A DNA stretch of 64,000 nt, taken from contig JAPLDU010000069.1 in the NCBI GenBank assembly GCA_026391255.1, positions 367 to 64,366 of the forward strand, in the 5' to 3' direction. The notes beneath the pieces are model-generated. The model saw only the letters and a program-made list of their open reading frames with translations, did no database searches and was not told the DNA's origin. This DNA is from Bacteroidia bacterium (lineage in GTDB: Bacteria > Bacteroidota > Bacteroidia > Bacteroidales > JAPLDU01). The first letter of the stretch is position 1. Every line of letters begins with the position of its first letter. This document shows positions 6,638 through 57,476 of the stretch, piece after piece. The translations under genes and the position numbers were made by a program.

Positions 6638-7198
6638 TTAAAATATTTCCATTTCTCCAAATGATGCAAACCTCCCATTTCCCTTAGCCATCCCATCAGC
6701 CACCTCTATGATAACGTCCACCTCATGGGCATTCTCGTTTTTGCCCCGGAAGTTACCTTCTTTGGTGGTGTGGTAAATGAAGATAAATGATGTTCGGGGA
6801 TTGTCCTGGCGAAGCTGGCGGAGATAGTCCAGGTCGAAGCCGGCACGGGAAACGCTGTCAATGAATACGAAGTCGTATGCTGATAGGTTGTACGGGACTG
6901 CTTCTGAAACATACAGGTTAGGGTCAATTGCCCTGAGCCGTTCCACTTTTTCCTTCAGGGTGTAACCGAACTTTTCTTCAATGGCACAGTAGAGAACTTT
7001 TCCATGATATTTGGCGAGGTGCTTTGCAAAGTCAATGCAGAGGGTAGATTTGCCGGATTTGGGAAGTCCATAAACCATTGCTGAAAACCCAACGCAGGGA
7101 TCACCGATCAGTTCCCGGTATTTTCCCTGGAGACCGATGGTTTCAAATTGCATCTGGGCAAGACGGGTACTGGAAATAACGCCGGAATCTGCTTTCAC
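6638..7198 (-). CDS. RecA-superfamily (Sms/RadA/KaiC-like) P-loop ATPase; probably the C-terminal part of a -1 frameshift fusion with 7195..8169
   Basis: Walker A GLPKSGKST, Walker B FVFIDS, HTTKEG..RG...AHEVD; weak GTG start; frame is open back to the A9 run at 7237-7245. Confidence 0.8.
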   Translation of the reverse strand: MKADSGVISSTRLAQMQFETIGLQGKYRELIGDPCVGFSAMVYGLPKSGKSTLCIDFAKHLAKYHGKVLYCAIEEKFGYTLKEKVERLRAIDPNLYVSEAVPYNLSAYDFVFIDSVSRAGFDLDYLRQLRQDNPRTSFIFIYHTTKEGNFRGKNENAHEVDVIIEVADGMAKGNGRFASFGEMEIF

Positions 7199-28358: not shown

Positions 28359-28472
28359 GTAAATATTTGATATGATGATATTTACAAGGTAAAATCGAGA
28401 AGAAACTAATACCATATAAAATAACATATAAAATTTATGCCCAAATACTTGCGTAATTGCCTGAAAAATTTA

Positions 28473-28480
28473 TACTTTTG
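28473..28480 (+). promoter_or_regulatory. Bacteroidota -7 promoter box facing the cassette array (Pc-like)
   Basis: TACTTTTG with a TTG about 21 nt upstream. Confidence 0.45.
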
Positions 28481-28669
28481 TTTTAAGAAATATGGCCGGA
28501 TAGTTTCCTTGTTAGACCCGGATATGGGACTGACGGGGCGAAGCTGTAGAAAAGGTTGAAAAATCAAGGGAAATGGATGCCAGAATTAATCGAGGTTTCA
28601 AACATCTAATTTATAAACCCGATTGATTGAGAAAATAAGATTACTGCAGATACCTGTAAAATTTGGGGA

Positions 28670-28732
28670 ATTTACGACAGCCAATATATGAAATATTTAC
28701 GACAAAGTTCAGAAAGCGAATTGTTGGGCAAC
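28670..28732 (+). other. Candidate attI-like site: two ATTTACGACA direct repeats then core GTTGGGC
   Basis: Direct repeats at 28670-28679 and 28695-28704; GTTGGGCAAC at 28723-28732, 5 nt before the ATG; no attC-type hairpin seen upstream. Confidence 0.45.
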
Positions 28733-28737
28733 ATTAA

Positions 28738-29376
28738 ATGAATACCAATATGACAACAGAAATTTTAAATATTATTAAATCAAATGTTTTCAGACAATGG
28801 CTATCTAATGAAGATGAATTGTCAAATTTTGTAAATGGAAACCATAGAAAAAGAGAATTATTAATACGAGATAAATTGTTCGATGAATTGGAAAGGAATT
28901 TTCCTGGAAGATTTAAAAAAGAGCAAAATTATCGGGACTTGATTGATTTAAAAACAGAATCAATTTGCGAATTAGGACATTCAGGAATGTTTCAAAATCC
29001 TCATTTCGTAGCAAGAAAATGTATAAGTGATTATTATAAAAGAAAAATAAGACAGCAAGATAGCAGAAATTTTATTTCTCTTCAAATACTTACTGATATT
29101 AAGAAATACCAAGGGACTATTAAATATCAAAGTATGGTTGATACACTTAATAATAATCGAAGCTGGAAATATGGAAACAGAAAAAATAGAATTTGTGTAA
29201 TAAATCAAGATTATACTTTGATTGGCAATTTTCACCTAAGTCAACCGATGAATATATCAGCAAGTATATATGAGATTGACCTATATTATTTGATTTCTGG
29301 ACCATTAAATTTGAATTGGAGTAGATTAAGAAATAGCTATAATCCTAAAGAAATAGATTTATCAAGAATAAAATAA
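28738..29376 (+). CDS. Cassette 1 hypothetical protein (possible degenerate PD-(D/E)xK-like fold)
   Basis: AT-rich 212-aa ORF; KEQNYRDLIDLKTESICELG only weakly nuclease-like. Confidence 0.5.
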   Translation: MNTNMTTEILNIIKSNVFRQWLSNEDELSNFVNGNHRKRELLIRDKLFDELERNFPGRFKKEQNYRDLIDLKTESICELGHSGMFQNPHFVARKCISDYYKRKIRQQDSRNFISLQILTDIKKYQGTIKYQSMVDTLNNNRSWKYGNRKNRICVINQDYTLIGNFHLSQPMNISASIYEIDLYYLISGPLNLNWSRLRNSYNPKEIDLSRIK

Positions 29377-29544
29377 ACTGTTTATCTTCTTAACACTTGA
29401 AAACTATCATAAATGGTTGGTATATATTGGAATATAATTGAATATTGCGAATTGATAAAAAAACGCACCATGTGCATCATATTCTGCGATATACCTAAAT
29501 TCGACATATTATAAACAAATAAAGGGTTAAAAAATATTAACGTT

Positions 29545-29677
29545 GCCCAACAAACCGCTATATTCCACAGGGGTTTTAGAAGGAATGCAGGGTGTATCGC
29601 CCGCCCGGAGGACGATTCTGAATAATGAACATAGCATCCCCGTAATCCCCTGCGGCACATAGCGGCAGGCGTTATGG
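29545..29677 (+). other. attC-type cassette recombination site 1 (133 bp)
   Basis: R'' GCCCAAC, arms CCGCTAT/ATAGCGG and CAGGGG/CCCCTG with bulges, R' GTTATGG. Confidence 0.75.
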
Positions 29678-29722
29678 GCAATATGATCAATACAATGTAA
29701 TAATTATTTAATGAAGTAATTT

Positions 29723-31810
29723 ATGAAAACAAAAAACTCCATGATTCCGAGTTCAAGAAATGAACTTCCGACCAATCCAATATTTGATGCATATAATAAC
29801 CTTATTATAGACTTAACATCAGACTTTAATTCACATCATGATGTTAAAGTTTTATTTGATGATGGATTATTTACATATCAGCTTACCCTTGGACAAAAAA
29901 ATTTCTTTGAAAACCTTTATGTTGTTGGGAAAGATGATAGCTTTGTATTTATTCCAGAGAATGTAAAAATGATTTACCCAGAACTATCCGATTTAAGAAT
30001 AGGAAAAAATGAATGGCAATTAATTGATTTTGTGACTAGTGAAAATTTTGAAATGACTAGACTTGTATCTATTATAACACCAATAGGCAGAGGAAAGACT
30101 ACACTTTTAAGTTACACTTTTCTCTACTTACGTGAAATGGTGCCAAATCTTAAAAAACGCGTTATTCCTATAGCTATTAATTGCCATGGAATTAAAGCGC
30201 CACTAAATGATAGAGTTTATAAAAATGAAACTTTTGATTTCCTTCTAACGAGTGTTTTTAAACCAGCTTTATTAAAAATAATTGATCAGTTTATAAAAAT
30301 CACAGATAATGCATTTTGGGATTGGTATTGCGAAAATTATCAAACCACATATGGGCATAAATTACATAGTTATAACGATGCATTAAATGAGGTTACTACT
30401 GATCAAGAAAAAGATTTCTACAGATCTCAAATATTTCAATTAAAAAATGAGGAACAAGATAAGGAAGAATACTTATATTCAGCTATAGAATATGTTAAAA
30501 AAACATATAAAAAGGAAATTGTATTCATTTTTGATAATATGGACTTTTTATCGATAAATAGTATCCAATTTTTAATAGAATTTGTAGAGAGGATTAAGGG
30601 AAAAACATCATTAAAATTTATTCTAACATTACGTGAAATTACGAGCAGAAAAGTAAGTGAAGCTTTTAGAGGGACTCTTTTTGAAACTATGCTGGATTGG
30701 GTCCCTGTAAATAGCATTGAGGTGATGAATAGAAGATGCAATTTATTAAATGAATCTTTAGTAAGTGAGGCCGAACGTAATCCTATAGTTATTAGAAATA
30801 TAAAAATATTTGTTTCAAATGTCAAAGAATTAATATTGGGTTTGACAAGTGCAATAAGTAACTCAACAGATTTAATTGAGTTATTTGCTAATAATAATAT
30901 GAGGAATGAATTGCAATTATTTAGAATTATTTTGAAATCAGGATTGCTTCCCGAATGGTCTCTAAACACAGTTCTTTTTCAATTTTCTGACGAAATTCAA
31001 GAAATCAAAAAAATACCAACCTATATTGTTTTGGAATCTATTGTTACAAATAATTATGGAACTTACATTGATTCAAAAAAAAGAGCAGTTCCCGGATTGA
31101 TTAATATACTTTCCACGAACAAAACACCTGAGATACTTGACTTTTTGTATTTATTAGTGCTTTCAGATCTAATGAAACATGATAACAACGATATATTGGT
31201 AAAGAATATAAATAACAGACTTTTCCATTTGTTAAATTGCTGTGATAGAGAAATATTTGATGAGTCATTTTATGATATTATTACTTCACTTCTAAATGCT
31301 GGACTTCTTGTTTCATCAGAAGTATATGAGATTTCGGCATCTGACAATGTAAGAACAGATGTTAAATACATTAACATATCTGATTTGGGTAGATTTTATA
31401 TGAATAATTTAATTTATAACTATAATTATATAGTTTTCGTCAAAGATAACATTAATCTTAAAGAAATTAATTTCGAAGGAACAATTGAGACCCGTATAAT
31501 AAGCTATAGTGAGAATAGATTTAATAGACAGAAATATACTAGGTTAAATTTGATAAACCTTACTCGTTTCTTTGATGAATTTGTAAAAAAGGAACTTGAA
31601 TTTTTAACACATATTAAGTCCCAAGAAAAACTTCTTCAATACTTTGATTTTTACTCATCTGTGAATAAATCTTTATATACTGTAAAAATGATTGATTCGA
31701 TAATACGGTTTTTCGATAATGAGAGATTTGGAAATTCTGATGTTCTTGATGAATTAAAAAGTCAAAAGAAGACGATAAATATCGAGTTTTATAAATTATT
31801 ACAGAATTAA
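29723..31810 (+). CDS. Cassette 2 large P-loop NTPase (STAND/KAP-like), candidate defence protein
   Basis: Walker A TPIGRGKTT, Walker B IVFIFDNMD; AT-rich. Confidence 0.7.
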   Translation: MKTKNSMIPSSRNELPTNPIFDAYNNLIIDLTSDFNSHHDVKVLFDDGLFTYQLTLGQKNFFENLYVVGKDDSFVFIPENVKMIYPELSDLRIGKNEWQLIDFVTSENFEMTRLVSIITPIGRGKTTLLSYTFLYLREMVPNLKKRVIPIAINCHGIKAPLNDRVYKNETFDFLLTSVFKPALLKIIDQFIKITDNAFWDWYCENYQTTYGHKLHSYNDALNEVTTDQEKDFYRSQIFQLKNEEQDKEEYLYSAIEYVKKTYKKEIVFIFDNMDFLSINSIQFLIEFVERIKGKTSLKFILTLREITSRKVSEAFRGTLFETMLDWVPVNSIEVMNRRCNLLNESLVSEAERNPIVIRNIKIFVSNVKELILGLTSAISNSTDLIELFANNNMRNELQLFRIILKSGLLPEWSLNTVLFQFSDEIQEIKKIPTYIVLESIVTNNYGTYIDSKKRAVPGLINILSTNKTPEILDFLYLLVLSDLMKHDNNDILVKNINNRLFHLLNCCDREIFDESFYDIITSLLNAGLLVSSEVYEISASDNVRTDVKYINISDLGRFYMNNLIYNYNYIVFVKDNINLKEINFEGTIETRIISYSENRFNRQKYTRLNLINLTRFFDEFVKKELEFLTHIKSQEKLLQYFDFYSSVNKSLYTVKMIDSIIRFFDNERFGNSDVLDELKSQKKTINIEFYKLLQN

Positions 31811-31817
31811 TATAAAT

Positions 31818-32354
31818 ATGGAAAGAATCAAATGCTTAACAAAGAAATGCCATTACTATCGAGAAATTGATTATAATGAAGATAAAAGACTGGGGTATAA
31901 ACATAAATGTCTTATGGGTTATTTCAATATTGTTAATGAAGGTGAGACCTACCCTTCCTACGCATCTGAAGAGGATGGTCTTATAATCTATAGAGATGAT
32001 CACTTATCAAATTATTGGAGTAAACGAAAATATTGTAGGAAAGACTGGGATTCATTCTATTCAAAATTATTGCCAAATATATTTGCAGGATTAGCTATTA
32101 TTATTTCTCTTCTTGTATTATTCTCTGAATATAACAAAAAAAGAGCTGAAAAGAAAGATACTTTTTTGTCTATTAAGCAAAAACAGGAAGTTGAGAGTAT
32201 TATTGTTGCAAAATTGATGCAACTGACTGTCGTTAACACAGAACAACTGAAAAAGACTGATTTAATTATTGAGCTATTTCGCCTTGATAGCGTTACTTCA
32301 ATTGGAATTAAAAATAGAAAAATACCACCCATAACGAGCATGCATCAGCCATAA
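31818..32354 (+). CDS. Cassette 2 second gene: Cys/His-containing N-terminus plus single TM
   Basis: CLTKKCHY...HKC; TM IFAGLAIIISLLVLF; 7 nt after the NTPase stop; last codons overlap attC2. Confidence 0.6.
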   Translation: MERIKCLTKKCHYYREIDYNEDKRLGYKHKCLMGYFNIVNEGETYPSYASEEDGLIIYRDDHLSNYWSKRKYCRKDWDSFYSKLLPNIFAGLAIIISLLVLFSEYNKKRAEKKDTFLSIKQKQEVESIIVAKLMQLTVVNTEQLKKTDLIIELFRLDSVTSIGIKNRKIPPITSMHQP

Positions 32355-32418
32355 TATCAACAAAGTAACTCTTAGCAAAGGTTTGAATTTTACGGCTTAT
32401 GCAGGCAAAGCGTTATAT
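32329..32418 (+). other. attC-type cassette recombination site 2 (90 bp)
   Basis: R'' CCATAAC, arms GCATGCATCAGCCATAA vs TTACGGCTTATGCAGGC with single mismatches, R' GTTATAT. Confidence 0.7.
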
Positions 32419-32915
32419 GAAATTGCAAAATAAATGACATTCCTCTGAAATCGTTCCCCTCGGCTAAGTCACTCTGATTATCACCTGCGGTATCATGAAC
32501 AGTGAATCGGCGGTTAAAAATTCAGTCCTTCATCAGTTTGTGAGATCTTCTTACTTATCGTTTTTCGTTAGTTTTGCTTGTTAGCACTGACTAATATGAT
32601 CTCTGCTGACTTTTTGGCTAATAGAAACCTAATCTATTCCAAGACCTCCCCCGGTAAGACAAATGTCCTTCGGTTATTCCCAACTGCATTTACATTTTGC
32701 GTTTCGGCTTTTGTTTCCTGGACGTCAGTATGATGTGTTACCTTATCCGATTTAACATGCCTGGAACATTACGTGGCTTGACGCAAACAACAAAAACGGT
32801 GAAGAAATGAAGAACAAAATCGGTTCATTTCTCGTATCATATATTTTCTGTAATTTAGCTGTTTAAAAAGTTTTTTTTCATTCACCAATGCATTTATTTT
32901 TTTAAATCTATAAAT

Positions 32916-34508
32916 ATGAAAAAAATATCAGAACTTAACCTTGGATTTATTGATGCAGAAAATTATCAAGGCCTGGAAAATAAGGAACTTTTTAATAGGA
33001 TATTTGTGAAAAATAAGTATTTGGATAGAATATTTTTACCTCATAATTATTTTCTTATTGGTGATAAAGGAACAGGTAAAACTGCATATGCTATATTTTT
33101 GACAAATAATCATTATAATAATACAAAATCCGATACAAAATTCATAAGAGAAACAGATTATGAGAAATTTATTACTTTGAAAAGAGAGAAACATTTACAG
33201 TTATCTGATTATACCAGTATTTGGAAGGTAATTATATTATTGCTGTTATCAAACAGTCTTACTAAGGAAGAATTGGATTATTATCCATTCAATAAGGGAA
33301 CAAAGATGAAGATCCTATTATCAGCTATCAATGAATATTATTCAAGTGCTTTTTCACCAGAAATTATTTATGCTTTAAATTTCATTGAAAATAATAAGAT
33401 TGCTGCTGAGTTGATTTCAAAATACCTTAAAGTAGGGGAAGAACAAAGTCAAAGTACGTCTTTTCAGGAATCAAAATTTCAAGTTAATTTGTTGTACATA
33501 GAAAAGAAATTCATTGAAGCCATTTCAAACATAAAATTGAAAAATAATCATTTTCTTTTTATCGACGGGATAGATGTTAGACCAGGTGAAATATTATTTT
33601 CTGATTATCTTGAATGTGTGAAAGGTTTGGCAAATGCAGTGTGGAGTTTAAATGCTGATTTTTTTACAAAAATTAAAGATTCTACAGGAAGATTTAAAGT
33701 CATTTTATTACTTAGACCTGATATCTATTATTCACTTAGTTTGCAAAATTCGACTAATAAACTTAGAGATAATTCTGTATACCTAGATTGGAGAACCACT
33801 TATCCTGAATATAGGGATTCTGAATTATTCTGTCTTGCGGATAAATTGCTTAATGCTCAACAAAATAAGACTACTTCAATTGGTAAAGCATGGGATCATT
33901 ATGTTCCTTGGTGTGGCAAATCTACTTTTCGTGAAAGAGAATATGATCCTTCCTTTTATAAGTTTTTACAGCTTTCTTATTCGCGTCCTAGAGATATAAT
34001 TACTATGTTACAAATTTTGCAAAGTATTTTTATTCAAAAAAACCATAAGGAAAATGAAGTTTTTCAAGAATCTGATTTTGACAGCCATGATTTTCAGAAT
34101 CAATATTCACAGTATTTGATGGGAGGGATAAGAGACCAACTTTCTTTTTATTATACTAATAGTGATTTTGAATTGTTTCTAAAATTTTTCCAATTTCTAA
34201 ATGGGAAAGTGGAATTTGATTATGATGAATATATAGTCGCATACAAAAAATTCGAAGCATTTTTATTTGATAATTGTAAAAATGATATCCCTGAATTTGT
34301 TGAATCAGCTGACGGGTTTTTACAGTTTTTATATGTTACAAATATGATTTGCTATTATGAAGAATTATTAAACGGTAATCCTATGTTTCATTTTTGTTAT
34401 AAAGAAAGAAATTTTGCTAATATTTCTCCAAAAGTTAAATCTCATGAGCATTATAGAATTCATTACGGTTTAGCAAAAGAATTAAATCTTGGTAGAAGTA
34501 TAAAATAA
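32916..34508 (+). CDS. P-loop ATPase (resembles Sll1717-like family), cargo
   Basis: LIGDKGTGKTA, FLFIDGID, RPRDII; family assignment from memory only. Confidence 0.65.
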   Translation: MKKISELNLGFIDAENYQGLENKELFNRIFVKNKYLDRIFLPHNYFLIGDKGTGKTAYAIFLTNNHYNNTKSDTKFIRETDYEKFITLKREKHLQLSDYTSIWKVIILLLLSNSLTKEELDYYPFNKGTKMKILLSAINEYYSSAFSPEIIYALNFIENNKIAAELISKYLKVGEEQSQSTSFQESKFQVNLLYIEKKFIEAISNIKLKNNHFLFIDGIDVRPGEILFSDYLECVKGLANAVWSLNADFFTKIKDSTGRFKVILLLRPDIYYSLSLQNSTNKLRDNSVYLDWRTTYPEYRDSELFCLADKLLNAQQNKTTSIGKAWDHYVPWCGKSTFREREYDPSFYKFLQLSYSRPRDIITMLQILQSIFIQKNHKENEVFQESDFDSHDFQNQYSQYLMGGIRDQLSFYYTNSDFELFLKFFQFLNGKVEFDYDEYIVAYKKFEAFLFDNCKNDIPEFVESADGFLQFLYVTNMICYYEELLNGNPMFHFCYKERNFANISPKVKSHEHYRIHYGLAKELNLGRSIK

Positions 34509-34620: not shown

Positions 34621-34848
34621 TCAGATAGGGGGATCAAAATGTCTAATTAACACCTTCACCTGTTTAGGAGTAAAGTATTTTTGCCCTTTCTTCCAGCCGG
34701 TCCTTGTCAGTTTTGAAAATAGATGGTGACTGCGGTATATCCATTTAGTAAAAGTATGGGAGGCAGACATTTTTGAGACATTGGGGAAATAAAGTTGGGC
34801 TAATTCGCCAAACCCATATGTTCTGATTTCAAAATCTTGTGTCTTCAT
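34621..34848 (-). CDS. Small HTH-like protein, DUF4248-like (possible regulator or excisionase)
   Basis: RTYGFGELAQLYFP...FTPKQV.VL..HF.PP pattern; immediately downstream of the integrase. Confidence 0.7.
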   Translation of the reverse strand: MKTQDFEIRTYGFGELAQLYFPNVSKMSASHTFTKWIYRSHHLFSKLTRTGWKKGQKYFTPKQVKVLIRHFDPPI

Positions 34849-34892
34849 AAGCAGATATATTTAAAACCAAGTAGTTATTTTATAGATTCCAG

Positions 34893-34921
34893 GAGAAAGC
34901 CATGATTTTTATGGCTTTCTC
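34893..34921. terminator. Hairpin downstream of the integrase
   Basis: GAGAAAGCCAT gattttt ATGGCTTTCTC. Confidence 0.55.
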
Positions 34922-34976
34922 TATTTTATAAGTAGTTGGATCATAATTTGAGATATAAAATGACTGATAATCATGA

Positions 34977-36200
34977 TTATAAACTTGTGGCAAATTTTTG
35001 TTGAAGTTTCGACATATCCCTGGCTACCTTCTTGTCCAGGAGCCGGGCATAAACCTGGGTCATTTTTATGGAGCTATGGCCAAGCATTTTTGAGACACTT
35101 TCAATAGGAATATCGTTATTAAGTGTCACTGTTGTCGCAAAGGTATGACGTGCCATATGCGTTGTCATTTTTTTCCTGATTCCACACATATCAGCAATCT
35201 CCCTCAGATAGGCATTCAGTTTTTGGTTGGAATACACCGGTAATAAAACATGGTGGTTTACACAGTGTGGATTGTCTTTGTACTTTTCTACAATTTCCAT
35301 AGCAGGGGGTAGGAGAGGGATGTGACTGGGATTGTCGGTCTTTGTCCGTTTAGTGTGTATCCAATAATTTCCATCTGTAGCCTGTACCAGGTTATCAGGG
35401 GTCAGTTTTTTAAGATCAGAATAGGCAAGTCCAGTAAAACATCCAAACAGAAATGTATCCTTCACATTCTCTAACCTTTCTATCTGAAAGTCCTTCTTTA
35501 TAATCGTATTCAATTCGTCTTCCGTTAAAAAATCCTTTTCGACTTTCCTTAATTTGAACTTTAATTCGGCAAATGGGTCTTTTGAAATCCAGCCTTTGGC
35601 TTGTGCCAACCTTATTATCTTCTTGAAATTCTTAATGTATTTCATGGTTGTATTATGCCCGCAATTCCTGTCAGTTTTTAGGTATAGCTCAAACCCCGAT
35701 AAGAATTCATGATCAATATCTTCTACAGGAATATCTTCCTTCCGGTACTTTTTCTTTATATAATCCTGCACATGCATCAGGCTGGTTTCATAACGTTGCA
35801 AGGTTGCCGGGGCAAAATCCTTCCCGACTAAGAGTTTTACCTGATTGTTATGCTCATGGAATAAGGAAATGATGAGCTTTTCGTGTGATTTTCCGAGATA
35901 AGATTCCTTAATTGCACTTGGAGTAACCTCCTTTCTTGAATCAATTAAGCGATTGAGATGTTCATTCAAATCGAATTGTGTTCGCTGTATGCACCGGTTG
36001 ATTTCTTTTGCCTCTTTTAAGTTTCCAATTGCTGCTTGCTTTTCAGGACACCAAAGCTCCGGCTGGATGGATTTGAAAATTGAAAACTCAGCATCCTGGC
36101 TGCCAATTCTGATTCTTGCAAAAATTGGTGCTTCACCGTTTTTGAGAAGTTTGGTTCTTTTAATGATGAACCTGATCAAGACATTTTTCCTGTTCGACAT
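34977..36200 (-). CDS. Tyrosine recombinase/integrase (Bacteroidota Arm-DNA-binding type)
   Basis: FGCFTGLAYSD, HMARHTFATT, LGHSSIKMTQVY. Confidence 0.95.
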   Translation of the reverse strand: MSNRKNVLIRFIIKRTKLLKNGEAPIFARIRIGSQDAEFSIFKSIQPELWCPEKQAAIGNLKEAKEINRCIQRTQFDLNEHLNRLIDSRKEVTPSAIKESYLGKSHEKLIISLFHEHNNQVKLLVGKDFAPATLQRYETSLMHVQDYIKKKYRKEDIPVEDIDHEFLSGFELYLKTDRNCGHNTTMKYIKNFKKIIRLAQAKGWISKDPFAELKFKLRKVEKDFLTEDELNTIIKKDFQIERLENVKDTFLFGCFTGLAYSDLKKLTPDNLVQATDGNYWIHTKRTKTDNPSHIPLLPPAMEIVEKYKDNPHCVNHHVLLPVYSNQKLNAYLREIADMCGIRKKMTTHMARHTFATTVTLNNDIPIESVSKMLGHSSIKMTQVYARLLDKKVARDMSKLQQKFATSL

Positions 36201-36992: not shown

Positions 36993-37665
36993 TCAGTCTT
37001 TCAACAATTCAGGGCGTAAAAGCTTAGTCCGTTCAATTGCCTGCTCAAACTGCCATTTGGCAATTTCTTTAGTATTCCCCGACAGTAGTATTTCCGGTAC
37101 TTTCCATCCATTGTAATCAGCCGGCCTGGTGTATACCGGCGGCGCCAGTAGGTCATCCTGGAAAGAGTCGGACAGGGCAGAGGTTTCATCTGAAATAGCT
37201 CCCGGAAGTATCCTAACTATGCTGTCGATGATTATGGCAGCAGCTAATTCTCCCCCTGAAATCACATAATTGCCAATGGATAACTCCAAATCCACAAGAT
37301 GATCACGTACTCTTTGATCTACTCCCTTATAATGCCCGCATAAGATAATGAGGTTCCCGGTTGTGGAAAGTTTGTTCGCCGTTTTCTGATCTAAAATATT
37401 GCCATCTGCACTGGTTAAAATGACTGCATCGTAATGTCTTTCACTTTTCAGTTGTCTTATCGCAAGGTCAATAGGTTCAATGGATAGAACCATTCCGGCT
37501 TCACCGCTGAAAGCATAGTCGTCGATCCTGCGGTGCTTGTCGCGGGAGAAATCTCTCAGGTTGTGAACATGTATTTATGTTCTTTTGCCTGGCCCGTTTG
37601 ATTATGGAATGATTCAAAGGGCTTTCCAGCAATTCAGGAACACCGGTCAGAACATCTATTCTCAT
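36993..37665 (-). pseudogene. trmD: tRNA (guanine37-N1)-methyltransferase with a frameshift near 37570-37580
   Basis: N-terminus MRIDVLTGVPELLESPLNHSIIKRA in one frame; [30 protein letters not shown]...[12 protein letters not shown]...[11 protein letters not shown] in another. Confidence 0.8.
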
Positions 37666-43213: not shown

Positions 43214-43326
43214 CGCTGAGAGACTTAGGGACGAAGAGACTGAGAGACTAAGAGACGAAGTGACTGGATGACAGACATAACTTTACAAACTTTATGAACT
43301 TTATAAACTTTACAAACTTTATAAAC
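43214..43326. repeat. Composite 8-mer (GAGACT-type) plus 9-mer (AACTTTAYR) array before pyrG
   Basis: Direct reading; same layout as 45150-45310. Confidence 0.85.
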
Positions 43327-43343
43327 TCATTGAAAATGATTAA

Positions 43344-44951: not shown

Positions 44952-45310
44952 GGCGACCGGGCGAACTAAGCGATGAGGCGACTGTACGATGCGACTGAGT
45001 GACGAAGAGACGGGGCGAACTAAGCGATGAGGCGACTGTACAAGGACGCTATTGAGTGACGAAGAGACGGGGCGAACTAAGCGATGAGGCGACTGTACAA
45101 GGACGCTATTGAGTGACGAAGAGACGGGGCGAACTAAGCGATGAGGCGACAAAGCGACTAAGTGACTAAGAGACTTGGCGAACTGAGCGAAAGGGCGACT
45201 GAGTGACTAAGCGACTTAGGGACTAAGTGACTGAGAGACTGAGAGACGGAATGACAGGCATAACTTTATGAACTTTATGAACTTTACGAACTTTACGAAC
45301 TTTATAAACT
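44952..45310. repeat. ~57-bp tandem repeat (about 3.5 copies) followed by 8-mer and 9-mer arrays
   Basis: GGGCGAACTAAGCGATGAGGCGACTGTAC...GAGTGACGAAGAGAC repeated with near-identical intervening sequence. Confidence 0.9.
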
Positions 45311-45321
45311 AAAAGATTTTC

Positions 45322-50729: not shown

Positions 50730-52154
50730 ATGAAAAAGCTAACTATTTTGACGATTTTAATTATTGTCGGAAACCTGTCATTTTCTCAGGATAATAGCTA
50801 TGTTTCTCCTGCTGATCCATTGGTGTCAGTAAAACTGGAACACTGGAAGGATTGGAAATTCGGACTATTGATGCATTGGGGAACTTACAGTCAGTGGGGT
50901 ATTGTTGAATCATGGTCATTGTGCGGCGAAGATGAAGGCTGGTGCCAGAGAAAAGGACCATTTTCATCCGATTATTACCAGTATAAAAAAGCATATGAAA
51001 ACCTGGTGACCACTTTTAACCCGGTGATGTTTGATCCTGATAAATGGGCAATGGCAGCCAGGTTTGCAGGTATGAAATATGTAGTGTTCACAACCAAGCA
51101 CCACGATGGTTTCTGCATGTTCAATACACATCAAACCGATTACAAAATCACATCAAAATCATGCCCGTTCAATAGTAATCCCAGGGCTAACATAACACAG
51201 GAAATATTCAGATCATTCAGGAAACAGGGATTTGGCATCGGGGCTTATTTCTCAAAACCTGACTGGCACAGCAACGATTATTGGTGGCCCTATTTTCCGG
51301 CTGCCGATCGGAATGTAAATTATGATCCGGTGAAATATCCTGAGGTGTGGCAGAGATTCAGGGACTTTACTTTCAACCAGATCAAAGAACTGATGTCTGA
51401 CTATGGTAACATCGATATTTTGTGGCTCGATGGGGGATGGGTAAGGCCGAAAAATAAACAGACCGAAGAATCAAAAAAATGGGTCAGTAAAATATACGAT
51501 CAGGATATTGACATGCCTTCCATTGCATCGATGGCCAGGTTGCTGCAACCCGGACTGATTATAGTAGACCGCAGCGTCCCCGGCGAGTTTGAGAATTACT
51601 GTACACCCGAACAGCAGGTTCCCGAAAAACCCCTGCCATATCCGTGGGAAACCTGCATGACCATGGCCACATCATGGTCGTACGTCCCGAACGATACTTA
51701 TAAACCTGCATTTGATCTTATTCAGCTTTTGGCTAAAATCGTTTCAAGAGGGGGTAATTTGTTGCTTAATATTGGTGTTAGTCCAACCGGGGAATGGGAT
51801 GATGAAGCATACAACAGATTGTACGAAATCGGCGATTGGATGAATGTAAACAGTGATGCATTATACGGAACAGAACCGGTAAAACCTTACCAGGAAAATA
51901 ATATCGTCTTTACACGTAAAAAAGATGGCTTCATTTATGCAATCTTCCTGGCCGGAAAAAGTGAAGAGACCTTGCCATCCCGGGTAGTCATCAGTTCTTT
52001 TCAACCAAAACAGGGCACAAATGTTTATATGATGGGTGAGGAAAATCCTCTCGTCTGGAAGAAACTCGGGAAAGGTTTTGTGATAGAAATTCCCGGCGAG
52101 CTGAGAGTGCTCCCTCCCTGTGAATATGCCTGGGCATTCAGGTTTACAAGGTGA
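50730..52154 (+). CDS. Alpha-L-fucosidase (GH29)
   Basis: KFGLLMHWG, TTKHHDGF, ILWLDG, WETCMT, GGNLLLNIG; ATG at 50730 preferred as start (signal peptide). Confidence 0.95.
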   Translation: MKKLTILTILIIVGNLSFSQDNSYVSPADPLVSVKLEHWKDWKFGLLMHWGTYSQWGIVESWSLCGEDEGWCQRKGPFSSDYYQYKKAYENLVTTFNPVMFDPDKWAMAARFAGMKYVVFTTKHHDGFCMFNTHQTDYKITSKSCPFNSNPRANITQEIFRSFRKQGFGIGAYFSKPDWHSNDYWWPYFPAADRNVNYDPVKYPEVWQRFRDFTFNQIKELMSDYGNIDILWLDGGWVRPKNKQTEESKKWVSKIYDQDIDMPSIASMARLLQPGLIIVDRSVPGEFENYCTPEQQVPEKPLPYPWETCMTMATSWSYVPNDTYKPAFDLIQLLAKIVSRGGNLLLNIGVSPTGEWDDEAYNRLYEIGDWMNVNSDALYGTEPVKPYQENNIVFTRKKDGFIYAIFLAGKSEETLPSRVVISSFQPKQGTNVYMMGEENPLVWKKLGKGFVIEIPGELRVLPPCEYAWAFRFTR

Positions 52155-52489
52155 AAGTCAGTAATGACTTAATTAGTGTCTGTCTTAATAGTCTTTTATA
52201 TTGATTTAAGAACAAGGATTAACGATTTTAGATTTCAGATTATCAGTTACTTCTAAAATCATTATTCGTTAACTTAGCGAAGCGATTTCACGAACACCTT
52301 AAAATATTAAAAATAGTTGTGAGTAATCAATATTCGTCATTCAAAATATTGAATATTATGGATAGACTCTTATTACTTTTGCGTCAATTGCGTCATTAGC
52401 GTTTAAAATATTGTTATTTTGTTTCAAGCTATGAATATGAATGAAACTAAATATATTTATATTATATTTTCAAAAATAAAATCAAACAT

Positions 52490-56261: not shown

Positions 56262-57476
56262 ATGAAAGCACATGTAAAATTAATTCTTGATTACCGAAGT
56301 AAAAGACTGGATGGTAATTGTCGGATCTCTTTGAGATTGACTCATCACAGAGTACCACTTTTAATCGGAACAGATTACCTTGTGAATCCCGATGATTGGG
56401 ATATAGAGGCATGTAGGATTAAACCCGGATGTAAATTGTACAAAAATCTTGTGAGGGTAAATAATGGCCTTACCCGTTTCAGAATGAATGCGGAAGAAGT
56501 TATTGATTATTTGACTTCACAAGGTGAAATTGACAATATCCCCCCTGCAGAACTTAAAATTAGAATTCTGAATAAGAATAAGAGATTTTCATTCAGGGAG
56601 TTCAATCAGAAAATTATTGAAGAATTAAAGATGTCAAACAAACTGGGAAATGCTTTTGCGTACGAGCAGGCACAGAAATTTCTCGACCGGAATACAAATA
56701 ACAGGGAACTCTACTTTGAAGACATTAATTATCAGTTACTAAAGAAGCTGGAAGCACAACATCTTTCCAGGAATAAGACATTGAACAGCCTGAGTTTTTA
56801 TTTACGTACTATTAGAGCAACCTATAACAGGGCTATCAAGGAAGGTCTGGTAAAACTTGATCTTTACCCATTTACCAATTACTCCATCAAAGAGACCAAA
56901 ACAGTAAAACGTGCCATCCGTAAAACAGACATTGAAAAAATCAGAGACATTGTACTGGAACCAAATAATCCACTGTGGCACGCCAGGAATTACTTCATGT
57001 TTTCATTTTATTGCATTGGAATGAACTTCTCCGACATGGCACAATTGAAGAAATCCAGCATTACTGAGGATCGAATGATTTATATCCGTGCAAAGACCGG
57101 AAAAGCTTATTCTGTCAAACTTACTGCACCTGCAAAAGAAATTTTATCTCATTACCTGATTGATCAGGCAGCAGATGATTATGTATTCCCGATAATAAAG
57201 CGAAATGGACTTGAATTACAGATGAAAGACATGCAGAATGACCGGAAGACCTTTAACAAGTATTTGAAACGACTTGGAAAGATGTGTGGTATAGAAGCCA
57301 ACCTTACATCATATGTTGCCCGTCATTCATGGGCAACCATAGCAAAAGACCTGAATGTTCCAATCAGTGTTATTTCTGAAGGTCTTGGACATGAAGACAT
57401 TAAAACCACCCAAATCTACCTGGATAGTTTCGATGCTGACGTAATTGATAAGGCAAACCAGTTGATCTCCGGATAA
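56262..57476 (+). CDS. Tyrosine recombinase/integrase
   Basis: FSFYCIGMNFSDM, YVARHSWAT, LGHEDIKTTQIY. Confidence 0.95.
   Translation: MKAHVKLILDYRSKRLDGNCRISLRLTHHRVPLLIGTDYLVNPDDWDIEACRIKPGCKLYKNLVRVNNGLTRFRMNAEEVIDYLTSQGEIDNIPPAELKIRILNKNKRFSFREFNQKIIEELKMSNKLGNAFAYEQAQKFLDRNTNNRELYFEDINYQLLKKLEAQHLSRNKTLNSLSFYLRTIRATYNRAIKEGLVKLDLYPFTNYSIKETKTVKRAIRKTDIEKIRDIVLEPNNPLWHARNYFMFSFYCIGMNFSDMAQLKKSSITEDRMIYIRAKTGKAYSVKLTAPAKEILSHYLIDQAADDYVFPIIKRNGLELQMKDMQNDRKTFNKYLKRLGKMCGIEANLTSYVARHSWATIAKDLNVPISVISEGLGHEDIKTTQIYLDSFDADVIDKANQLISG

Follow-up and report, generated by a model that had tools for sequence, protein, structure and literature searches.

A probable cassette array of an integron-like system, without its own recombinase, in an integrative element of a Bacteroidia genome

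Which recombination system assembled the short run of cassette-like genes at 28.4-32.4 kb of a 64,000-nucleotide (nt) stretch of a Bacteroidia bacterium genome (contig JAPLDU010000069.1; the whole stretch is called the window here)? A first-pass annotation had read these genes as genuine integron-type cassettes ending in attC sites, carried by a provirus and inserted by the integron integrase IntI acting in trans. The observation was confirmed and the interpretation was partly supported: the cassettes belong to a Bacteroidota recombinase-associated type rather than being IntI products. The region is most probably a short cassette array of a Bacteroidota integron-like system, whose architecture is known elsewhere as rAID-1, and it has no recombinase of its own. 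The assembly from which the window comes consists of 161 contigs and is 97.5% complete.

The entry site and the two cassettes are laid out as follows (ORF, open reading frame; aa, amino acids).

28670..28732, plus strand: attI-like entry site, with direct repeats ATTTACGACA at 28670-79 and 28695-704, then GCGAATT followed by the core GTTGGGCAAC
28724..29671, plus strand: cassette 1, made up of an ORF (28738-29376, 212 aa) and attC1; its start TTGGGCAAC is complementary to the R'' end at 29542-51
29545..29677, plus strand: attC1, a 133-nt hairpin of sequence family A, with R'' GCCCAAC at 29545-51 and R' GTTATGG at 29671-77
29672..32412, plus strand: cassette 2, made up of two ORFs (29723-31810, 695 aa; 31818-32354, 178 aa) and attC2
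32329..32418, plus strand: attC2, a 90-nt hairpin with a short loop, with R'' CCATAAC at 32329-35 and R' GTTATAT at 32412-18

The core at the head of each cassette returns in inverse orientation at its own end, as the first-pass annotation had described. GTTGGGCAAC (28723-28732) and GTTGCCCAAC (29542-29551) are reverse complements at 10/10 positions, and GTTATGGG (29671-29678) and CCCATAAC (32328-32335) at 8/8. Both downstream cores begin imperfect inverted repeats, attC1 and attC2, each ending in a new GTT, and the crossover position in the entry site lies between 28723 and 28724. Both sites have the architecture of attC, that is, a length of 57-141 nt, the plan RYYYAAC...GTTRRRY and a position directly 3' of an ORF. 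Folded as single-stranded DNA, a check that the first-pass annotation had proposed, both were stabler on the bottom strand than on the top strand: attC1 reached -28.7 kcal/mol (z -3.2) against -21.9, and attC2 -12.0 kcal/mol (z -1.75) against -11.1. The entry region formed no hairpin on folding (z +0.6).

Taken alone, the core matches in the window are within chance. Under a first-order Markov model of the window, 14.4 10-mers that begin with GTT and recur as an exact reverse complement 300-4000 nt downstream are expected and 18 are present; for 8-mers under the same criterion, 196 were observed against 189 expected. Such numbers would suit a reading in which the hairpins are ordinary intergenic repeats (terminators, repetitive extragenic palindromes or miniature inverted-repeat transposable elements (MITEs)) and the complementarity of the cores is coincidental: chance alone would yield 8-10-nt matches in a window this long, the genome is rich in dispersed repeats, and every site follows a stop codon, as a terminator would. 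The matches are significant because the cores sit exactly at the ends of sites delimited by covariance models and because the same boundary rule runs through the whole site family.

Scanners for attC that combined regular expressions with folding either missed known sites or were too noisy and were replaced by two covariance models, R1, built from six sites of this genome, and R2, a refined model of 37 sites. attC1, which is in the training set, scored 123.6 bits with R1 and 116.3 bits with R2. attC2, which is outside it, was found by R2 with filters off at 24.6 bits (E 1.9e-5), in a full-model alignment that covers exactly 32329-32418.

Relatives of attC1 are present in at least 10 further copies in the same genome. 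By blastn, homologues with 77-82% identity lie on another contig (C108) and at three places on a second one (C15), where the minus strand has an array with eight or more cassettes; a third array is found on C113. The intergenic elements on C15 fall into three sequence families of 128-143 nt with a common plan, ...YAAC AAR CCGCT ... AGCGG CNGGC GTT..., although the 3' arms of family B were misplaced in the MAFFT alignment of the three families, and family B lies outside R1 and R2 and is under-detected. The first cassette on C15 has core and inverse core GTTGTAGCCC and GGGCTACAAC, matching at 10/10, and the first on C113 has GTTGTGT and ACACAAC, matching at 7/7. At several of the C15 sites the core has decayed (to GGT, ATT or GCT), which would be expected once a site is out of use.

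Beyond this genome, among 301 genomes of the order, 47 had full-length R1 matches of 130-133 nt; they belong to 46 of 208 genera, and the matches form co-oriented arrays with a spacing of 0.6-4 kb. A degenerate pattern of the attC1 loop had 0 matches in metagenomes. Covariation was examined in 35 distinct sites from more than 8 genomes, where 75.7% of the cells were paired against 60.4% after shuffling (0/500 shuffles as high), cells changed on both sides numbered 146 against 59 in shuffles, and slid controls, with the partner moved by 1-3 columns, gave 27-41% pairing. The L-box sequences vary and yet stay complementary (CCGCT with AGCGG, GCGGT with ACCGC, AGGCT with AGCCT, CCGGC with GCCGG), and the stems covary while the loop sequences differ between sites. 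The conserved irregularities of the stems are mostly 1x1 mismatches, not bulged bases.

The boundary rule was compared over 54 sites forming 38 successive pairs, at seven variable positions, of which four belong to the core and three lie beyond it. The R'' of a site was complementary to the R' of the preceding site at a mean of 4.55/7 positions, with 53% of the 38 pairs at 6/7 or better, and the mean rose to 5.43 for pairs less than 1.5 kb apart. Against its own R' the mean was 2.89, and for random pairs 2.45, with 2% at 6/7 or better in both cases. One array (L052) shows three consecutive perfect pairs, GTTAGTG with CACTAAC, GTTAGGC with GCCTAAC and GTTAGCT with AGCTAAC. First cassettes match the entry sites of their arrays at 9/10 (L103), 10/10 (L073) and 9/10 (L074) positions. 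We read this rule as the footprint of insertion of circular cassettes by crossover at G/TT, as in integrons. The first-pass view that these are genuine cassettes with integron-type logic holds in this respect, with hairpin sites, a G/TT crossover and an inverse core that is inherited with the cassette.

A strand preference accompanies the rule. The bottom strand was stabler in 27 of 34 sites, by a mean of 2.1 kcal/mol (Wilcoxon p 8e-5). In the stems, 64 cells read A.C on the top strand and so form G.T wobbles on the bottom one, while 9 cells show the reverse. By analogy with attC, this bias suggests that the folded bottom strand is the substrate. Ordinary repeats that match by chance are already contradicted, by the boundary rule across 38 site pairs from many genomes, by stem covariation with differing loops, by the strand-specific wobble bias, by the co-oriented arrays behind a recombinase, and by a homologous cassette that is precisely bounded in another context (the last two are described below); we regard that explanation as having next to no chance of being correct.

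The recombinase that heads related arrays was found through a genome (G114) in which a 381-aa protein with Phage_int_SAM_4 and Phage_integrase domains is followed downstream by two sites in the same direction. A profile made from five such proteins led to 80 recombinase loci across Bacteroidota, including Flavobacteriaceae, Cyclobacteriaceae, Lentimicrobiaceae, metagenome-assembled genomes (MAGs) of Bacteroidales, Alkalitalea and Anaerophaga. R2 matches were present in 17 of the 80 loci, all on the plus strand and downstream of the recombinase. These arrays begin 30-300 nt after the stop codon of the recombinase, with a non-hairpin entry site between this stop and the first cassette that reads (T)ATAAACNA or ..CAATT followed by GTTRRRY, for example TATACAATTGTTGGGGC in L095 and TATCCAATTGTTGTAGCC in L061. 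The junction in the window, GCGAATT followed by GTTGGGC, resembles the motifs AATT or ACGA followed by GTTRRRY of 16 related recombinase loci.

The family recombinases pass the NCBIfam XerA model NF040815 (231-241 bits; cut-off 220) and remain below the cut-off of the integron integrase model TIGR02249 (207-233 bits; cut-off 265). Their alignment to a true IntI of the same order shows a 44-residue gap at the additional domain that contains the ALER motif, and they have 100-250 extra N-terminal residues. An IntI-like N-terminal recombinase signal was found in 33 of 46 R1-positive genomes and in 101 of 254 R1-negative genomes.

IntI itself is missing. The first-pass statement that the window holds none was extended to the assembly, in which the best TIGR02249 score is 73 bits against the cut-off of 265, and tblastn with a true IntI of the same order returned XerC/D-like genes only. 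The genome-wide search that had been proposed for intI and for the site family yielded the family, on C15, C108 and C113, and no intI. Among the 301 genomes of the order, true IntI occurs in five (314-433 bits), and a sixth copy (G077) is broken; the genomes with IntI genes (loci L013-L018) are G126, G207, G246, G024, G077 and G164. R1 had no match in these six genomes, and R2 had none in the six IntI loci, which are short, lie at contig ends and provide a weak test. For five of the six IntI genes, the contig ends within ~1.3 kb in the direction in which an array is expected, and inspection of the IntI loci of relatives for classical arrays gave no usable array. Classical integrons also exist in this order but assemble poorly.

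These results bear on the reading in which the window carries a remnant of a classical integron, or an attC cluster that is without an integron integrase (CALIN), with true attC sites left by a lost IntI or served by IntI in trans. In sequence the sites do carry all the hallmarks of attC (cores of the RYYYAAC and GTTRRRY types, lengths of 90-133 nt, a bottom-strand bias and the boundary rule); true IntI is present in 5/301 genomes of the same order; and CALINs are common (PMC4889954, PMC9024848). On the other side, this genome has no IntI, the six genomes with IntI genes lack R1 matches and the six IntI loci lack R2 matches, and the same site family follows a different recombinase in 17 loci. 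That recombinase is co-directional with the array, whereas the integrase is divergent in most integrons, and the stem irregularities are mainly conserved 1x1 mismatches, not the extrahelical bulges read by the I2 helix of IntI. The first-pass assignment of the footprint to IntI was not upheld, as the site family was never seen beside a true IntI and lies repeatedly downstream of a XerA/XerD-like recombinase. We consider a classical remnant improbable and favor the Bacteroidota integron-like array.

Several points weigh against this preferred assignment. The family recombinase is absent from the window and from the assembly by tblastn, the best match having 33% identity, so the link between array and enzyme rests on other genomes; the search returned two XerC/D-like genes of ~300 aa in housekeeping contexts and nothing else. 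The assembly is divided into 161 contigs and the C113 array lies 220 nt from a contig end, so a recombinase may have escaped assembly. attC2 is short (90 nt) and its score is weak, and the covariation alignments were fitted to the model, which favors structure. IntI enzymes tolerate diverse attC sequences, so they could still act on these sites. A recognisable immunity domain is absent from the window and C15 cassettes by Pfam and PADLOC. The match to rAID-1 (reference recombinase BF9343_RS08045) is one of architecture.

Upstream of the entry site, two further features stand at the head of the array, and a low-GC stretch follows its last site.

28445..28480, plus strand: predicted Bacteroidetes-type promoter directed toward the array, with the -7 box TACTTTTG at 28473-28480, from sequence reading and conservation
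28487..28554, plus strand: conserved leader, in which a 38-nt block (28514-28551) is identical with the head of the C15 array by blastn
32419..34508, plus strand: distal low-GC stretch, with 500 non-coding nt (32419-32915) and then an ORF (32916-34508, 530 aa)

A promoter of this type (TAnnTTTG) is common to the window, C15 and C113 arrays, and the promoter region is kept upstream of those on C15 (15929-15706, 84%) and C113 (~220-258). Judging by its sequence, 28445..28480 would drive transcription of the array. The leader has no Rfam match, and a 24-nt core of it, sought exactly in collections of genomes, viruses and metagenomes, gave 0 matches. A binding site or a regulatory RNA could lie here. 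The leader was also considered as a recombinase remnant, and this was rejected for lack of a tblastn signal.

The distal stretch may be a third, decayed cassette or ordinary cargo. A terminal site was not found beyond the 530-aa ORF, there being neither a CATATAAC inverse core downstream nor an R2 match. GC content is 0.27-0.34 across 28-35 kb (0.28-0.33 in the distal stretch) and 0.41-0.46 to the left. The ~500 non-coding nt immediately 3' of attC2 (32419-32915) are GC-richer, and their minus strand has weak Rfam matches to D1-D4 domains of group II introns (RF01998, 24.8 bits, E 0.27; RF02001, 20.3 bits, E 0.8). A D5-like match of 25.9 bits lies within the C15 array (L009 6350-6389). In classical integrons, group IIC introns target attC sites, and intron remnants at 32419-32915, if real, would be an additional parallel with integrons.

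In the model that we propose, the array would have a promoter of its own, an entry site without a hairpin and two cassettes, each ending in a hairpin site. The recombinase would act on the folded bottom strand of the sites and exchange strands within the GTTRRRY core, between its G and its TT. An incoming circular cassette would thus bear RYYYAAC, the inverse core, at its 3' end and the matching TTRRRY at its 5' end. Since the recombinase is absent from the assembly, the arrays are presumed static: those in the window, on C15 and on C113 would be gene stocks transcribed from the promoter, and cassette gain or loss here would require a recombinase supplied in trans. The window array would be low-GC cargo of an integrative element that is in part phage-tail-like, placed next to its xis/int module.

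The genes in the cassettes were compared with protein families and with other genomes. The 212-aa product of cassette 1 has no Pfam and no PADLOC match, and its one metagenome homologue, at 64%, has no flanking sites. The 695-aa product of cassette 2 is a P-loop NTPase with a weak AAA_22/STAND match in Pfam, and the 530-aa ORF has a weak ORC/CDC6-like AAA match. The cassette 2 gene pair recurs in a Bacteroidetes MAG (L137) with 57% identity (694+163 aa) and without sites, and in a lake metagenome (L140/L141) with 38% identity (700+169 aa). In L141 this pair is a cassette bounded by sites of the family, the ends of which, GTTGTAGGGC and GCCCTACAAC, match at 10/10. The homologue in L140/L141 speaks for cassette-precise mobility, and it supplies the variation at GTT junctions that the first-pass annotation had named as a check.

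The 695-aa and 178-aa pair, kept in three unrelated contexts, is a candidate conflict or defence system without a PADLOC match. Defence genes of the GmrSD/NsnA-like, DEDDh and FRG-domain kinds occur in sister arrays. On C113, the second cassette of the array (L012 1253-2839) encodes a GmrSD/NsnA-like protein (PADLOC NsnA, 216 bits) with a 166-aa partner, so that an anti-phage system already known is found there in cassette form. The cassette genes of the window are probably conflict or defence genes as well.

The element that hosts the array has its own recombination module to the right, convergent with the array.

34621..36200, minus strand: host recombination module, with a xis-like ORF (34621-34848) and a tyrosine integrase (34977-36200)

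The integrase carries Arm-DNA-bind_5, Phage_int_SAM_5 and Phage_integrase domains (Pfam), in agreement with the ordinary arm-binding type named in the first-pass annotation, and is unrelated to the recombinase family of the arrays. One could suppose that this enzyme, or another resident recombinase, built the array and that the array is private to the element. The array directly adjoins the xis/int module, and a sister module on C60, with 74% aa identity and a frameshifted integrase, also has variable cargo at the corresponding position. Against this, the cargo of the C60 sister is different and has no hairpin sites, no integrase of this kind lies near the arrays of C15, C113 and L052, and the substrates of arm-binding integrases are double-stranded att sites with arm repeats rather than hairpins. 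Assembly by the resident integrase is accordingly very unlikely, and the Bacteroidota recombinase-associated system is again preferred. An integrase flanking every array was rejected: the 420-aa ORF by the C15 array is a protein sorted by the type IX secretion system, and the 407-aa ORF in L052 is a pyridoxal phosphate enzyme.

The left part of the element (7-28 kb) encodes methylases, RadC and a helicase-methylase, as well as two lysozyme/baseplate-hub-like proteins, weak matches to tail proteins and a protein with a tail-fibre domain common to a Xanthomonas phage. Terminase, portal and capsid genes were not found in the element, and the provirus of the first-pass annotation, which is possible, is not established by the tail-fibre-like and baseplate-hub/lysozyme-like matches. 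Loading of the array in trans, also proposed there, is likewise conjectural. Sister elements were sought in viral contigs with the 598-aa neighbour and the integrase as queries, and none was found.

Other features of the window were recorded alongside. A 364-nt direct repeat of 84% identity (2613-2976 and 6667-7030), with relatives on C115, could mark borders of the element or a duplicated module. The trmD ORF beside the integrase (36993-37493, minus strand; 166 aa) has a Pfam match that starts at profile position 39, and a separate 54-aa ORF lies just upstream of it; this could reflect a frameshift, or an attachment site of the element in or near trmD. At 56262-57476 there is an ORF for a second tyrosine integrase (404 aa). 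Tandem arrays of short-word repeats (43216-43340 and 44952-45316) have dozens of matching loci genome-wide, and a ~210-nt dispersed MITE-like repeat (52143-52380) is present in more than 60 genome copies with 70-95% identity.

The published system closest in architecture is rAID-1 (recombinase-associated acquired interbacterial defence). Ross et al. 2019 (10.1101/471110) described it from 226 of 423 Bacteroidales genomes as arrays linked to a recombinase, with intergenic repeats like those of integrons and with a 5' XerD-like recombinase ahead of co-directional genes of GC ≤41%. Recombinases beside polyimmunity loci had been noted by Zhang et al. 2012, and a 2025 follow-up treats the mechanism of rAID biogenesis as an open question (PMC12247911). 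The first-pass remark that a virus-like element with a cassette array loaded in trans is little described in Bacteroidota is only half true, rAID-1 having already been reported in more than half of the Bacteroidales genomes surveyed. IntegronFinder 2.0 found almost no integrons in Bacteroidetes (PMC9024848). The rAID-1 publications (10.1101/471110, PMC12247911) give no hairpin structure, boundary rule or strand bias.

Like rAID-1, the genes in the window are co-directional and short, with a GC content of 0.27-0.33 against ~0.43 in the flanks; where rAID-1 calls for at least two downstream co-directional genes of low GC, four plus-strand ORFs at 28738-34508 have 0.27-0.34. Conserved intergenic repeats are shared as well (attC1 and attC2 match R1/R2), as are a 5' co-directional XerD-like recombinase in related genomes and a setting in mobilisable DNA of Bacteroidales. 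Unlike rAID-1, the window and the assembly have no recombinase, the array begins at its own promoter and leader, and the cargo has no recognisable immunity domain and resembles NTPase-based conflict genes.

With integrons and CALINs the array shares the R''-L''...L'-R' plan, the RYYYAAC and GTTRRRY cores, the G/TT crossover, an inverse core that matches the 5' end of its own cassette, the bottom-strand folding bias, a head promoter, a non-hairpin entry site and the existence of orphan clusters without an integrase. It differs from integrons in that the family recombinase has no IntI additional domain, falls below the TIGR02249 cut-off, carries an N-terminal extension of 100-250 aa and stands upstream of, and co-directional with, the cassettes. 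Within a lineage the sites also keep to a uniform length of ~130 nt, their cores are often complementary over as many as 10 nt, and the stem irregularities are mismatches, not bulges. Clusters of attC sites without an integrase have been reported on phage and prophage DNA and proposed as an intercellular route for cassettes (Qi et al. 2023, PMC9892861). The window resembles these phage components in having site clusters without an integrase on mobile DNA; those are of the IntI attC type in Proteobacteria phages, whereas the sites here are of a Bacteroidota type and a viral host is not established.

Integrons are the textbook gene-capture system, and the Bacteroidota arrays follow their recombination logic closely with a family enzyme that has no counterpart of the domain thought necessary for reading attC hairpins. 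This raises the questions of how recognition of hairpins came about twice and whether the IntI domain can be dispensed with. We tentatively propose, with slightly less confidence than doubt, a phylum-wide counterpart of integrons, in which a XerA-like recombinase without the IntI domain would act on folded bottom-strand hairpins at G/TT and orphan arrays with a promoter of their own, instead of being mere debris, would serve as portable cassette stocks. Orphan arrays such as the one in the window point to a way in which stocks of cassettes, candidate anti-phage genes among them, may travel without a recombinase. If this is true, stocks on integrative or virus-like elements would move ready-made conflict genes between cells, to be reopened by a recombinase supplied in trans.

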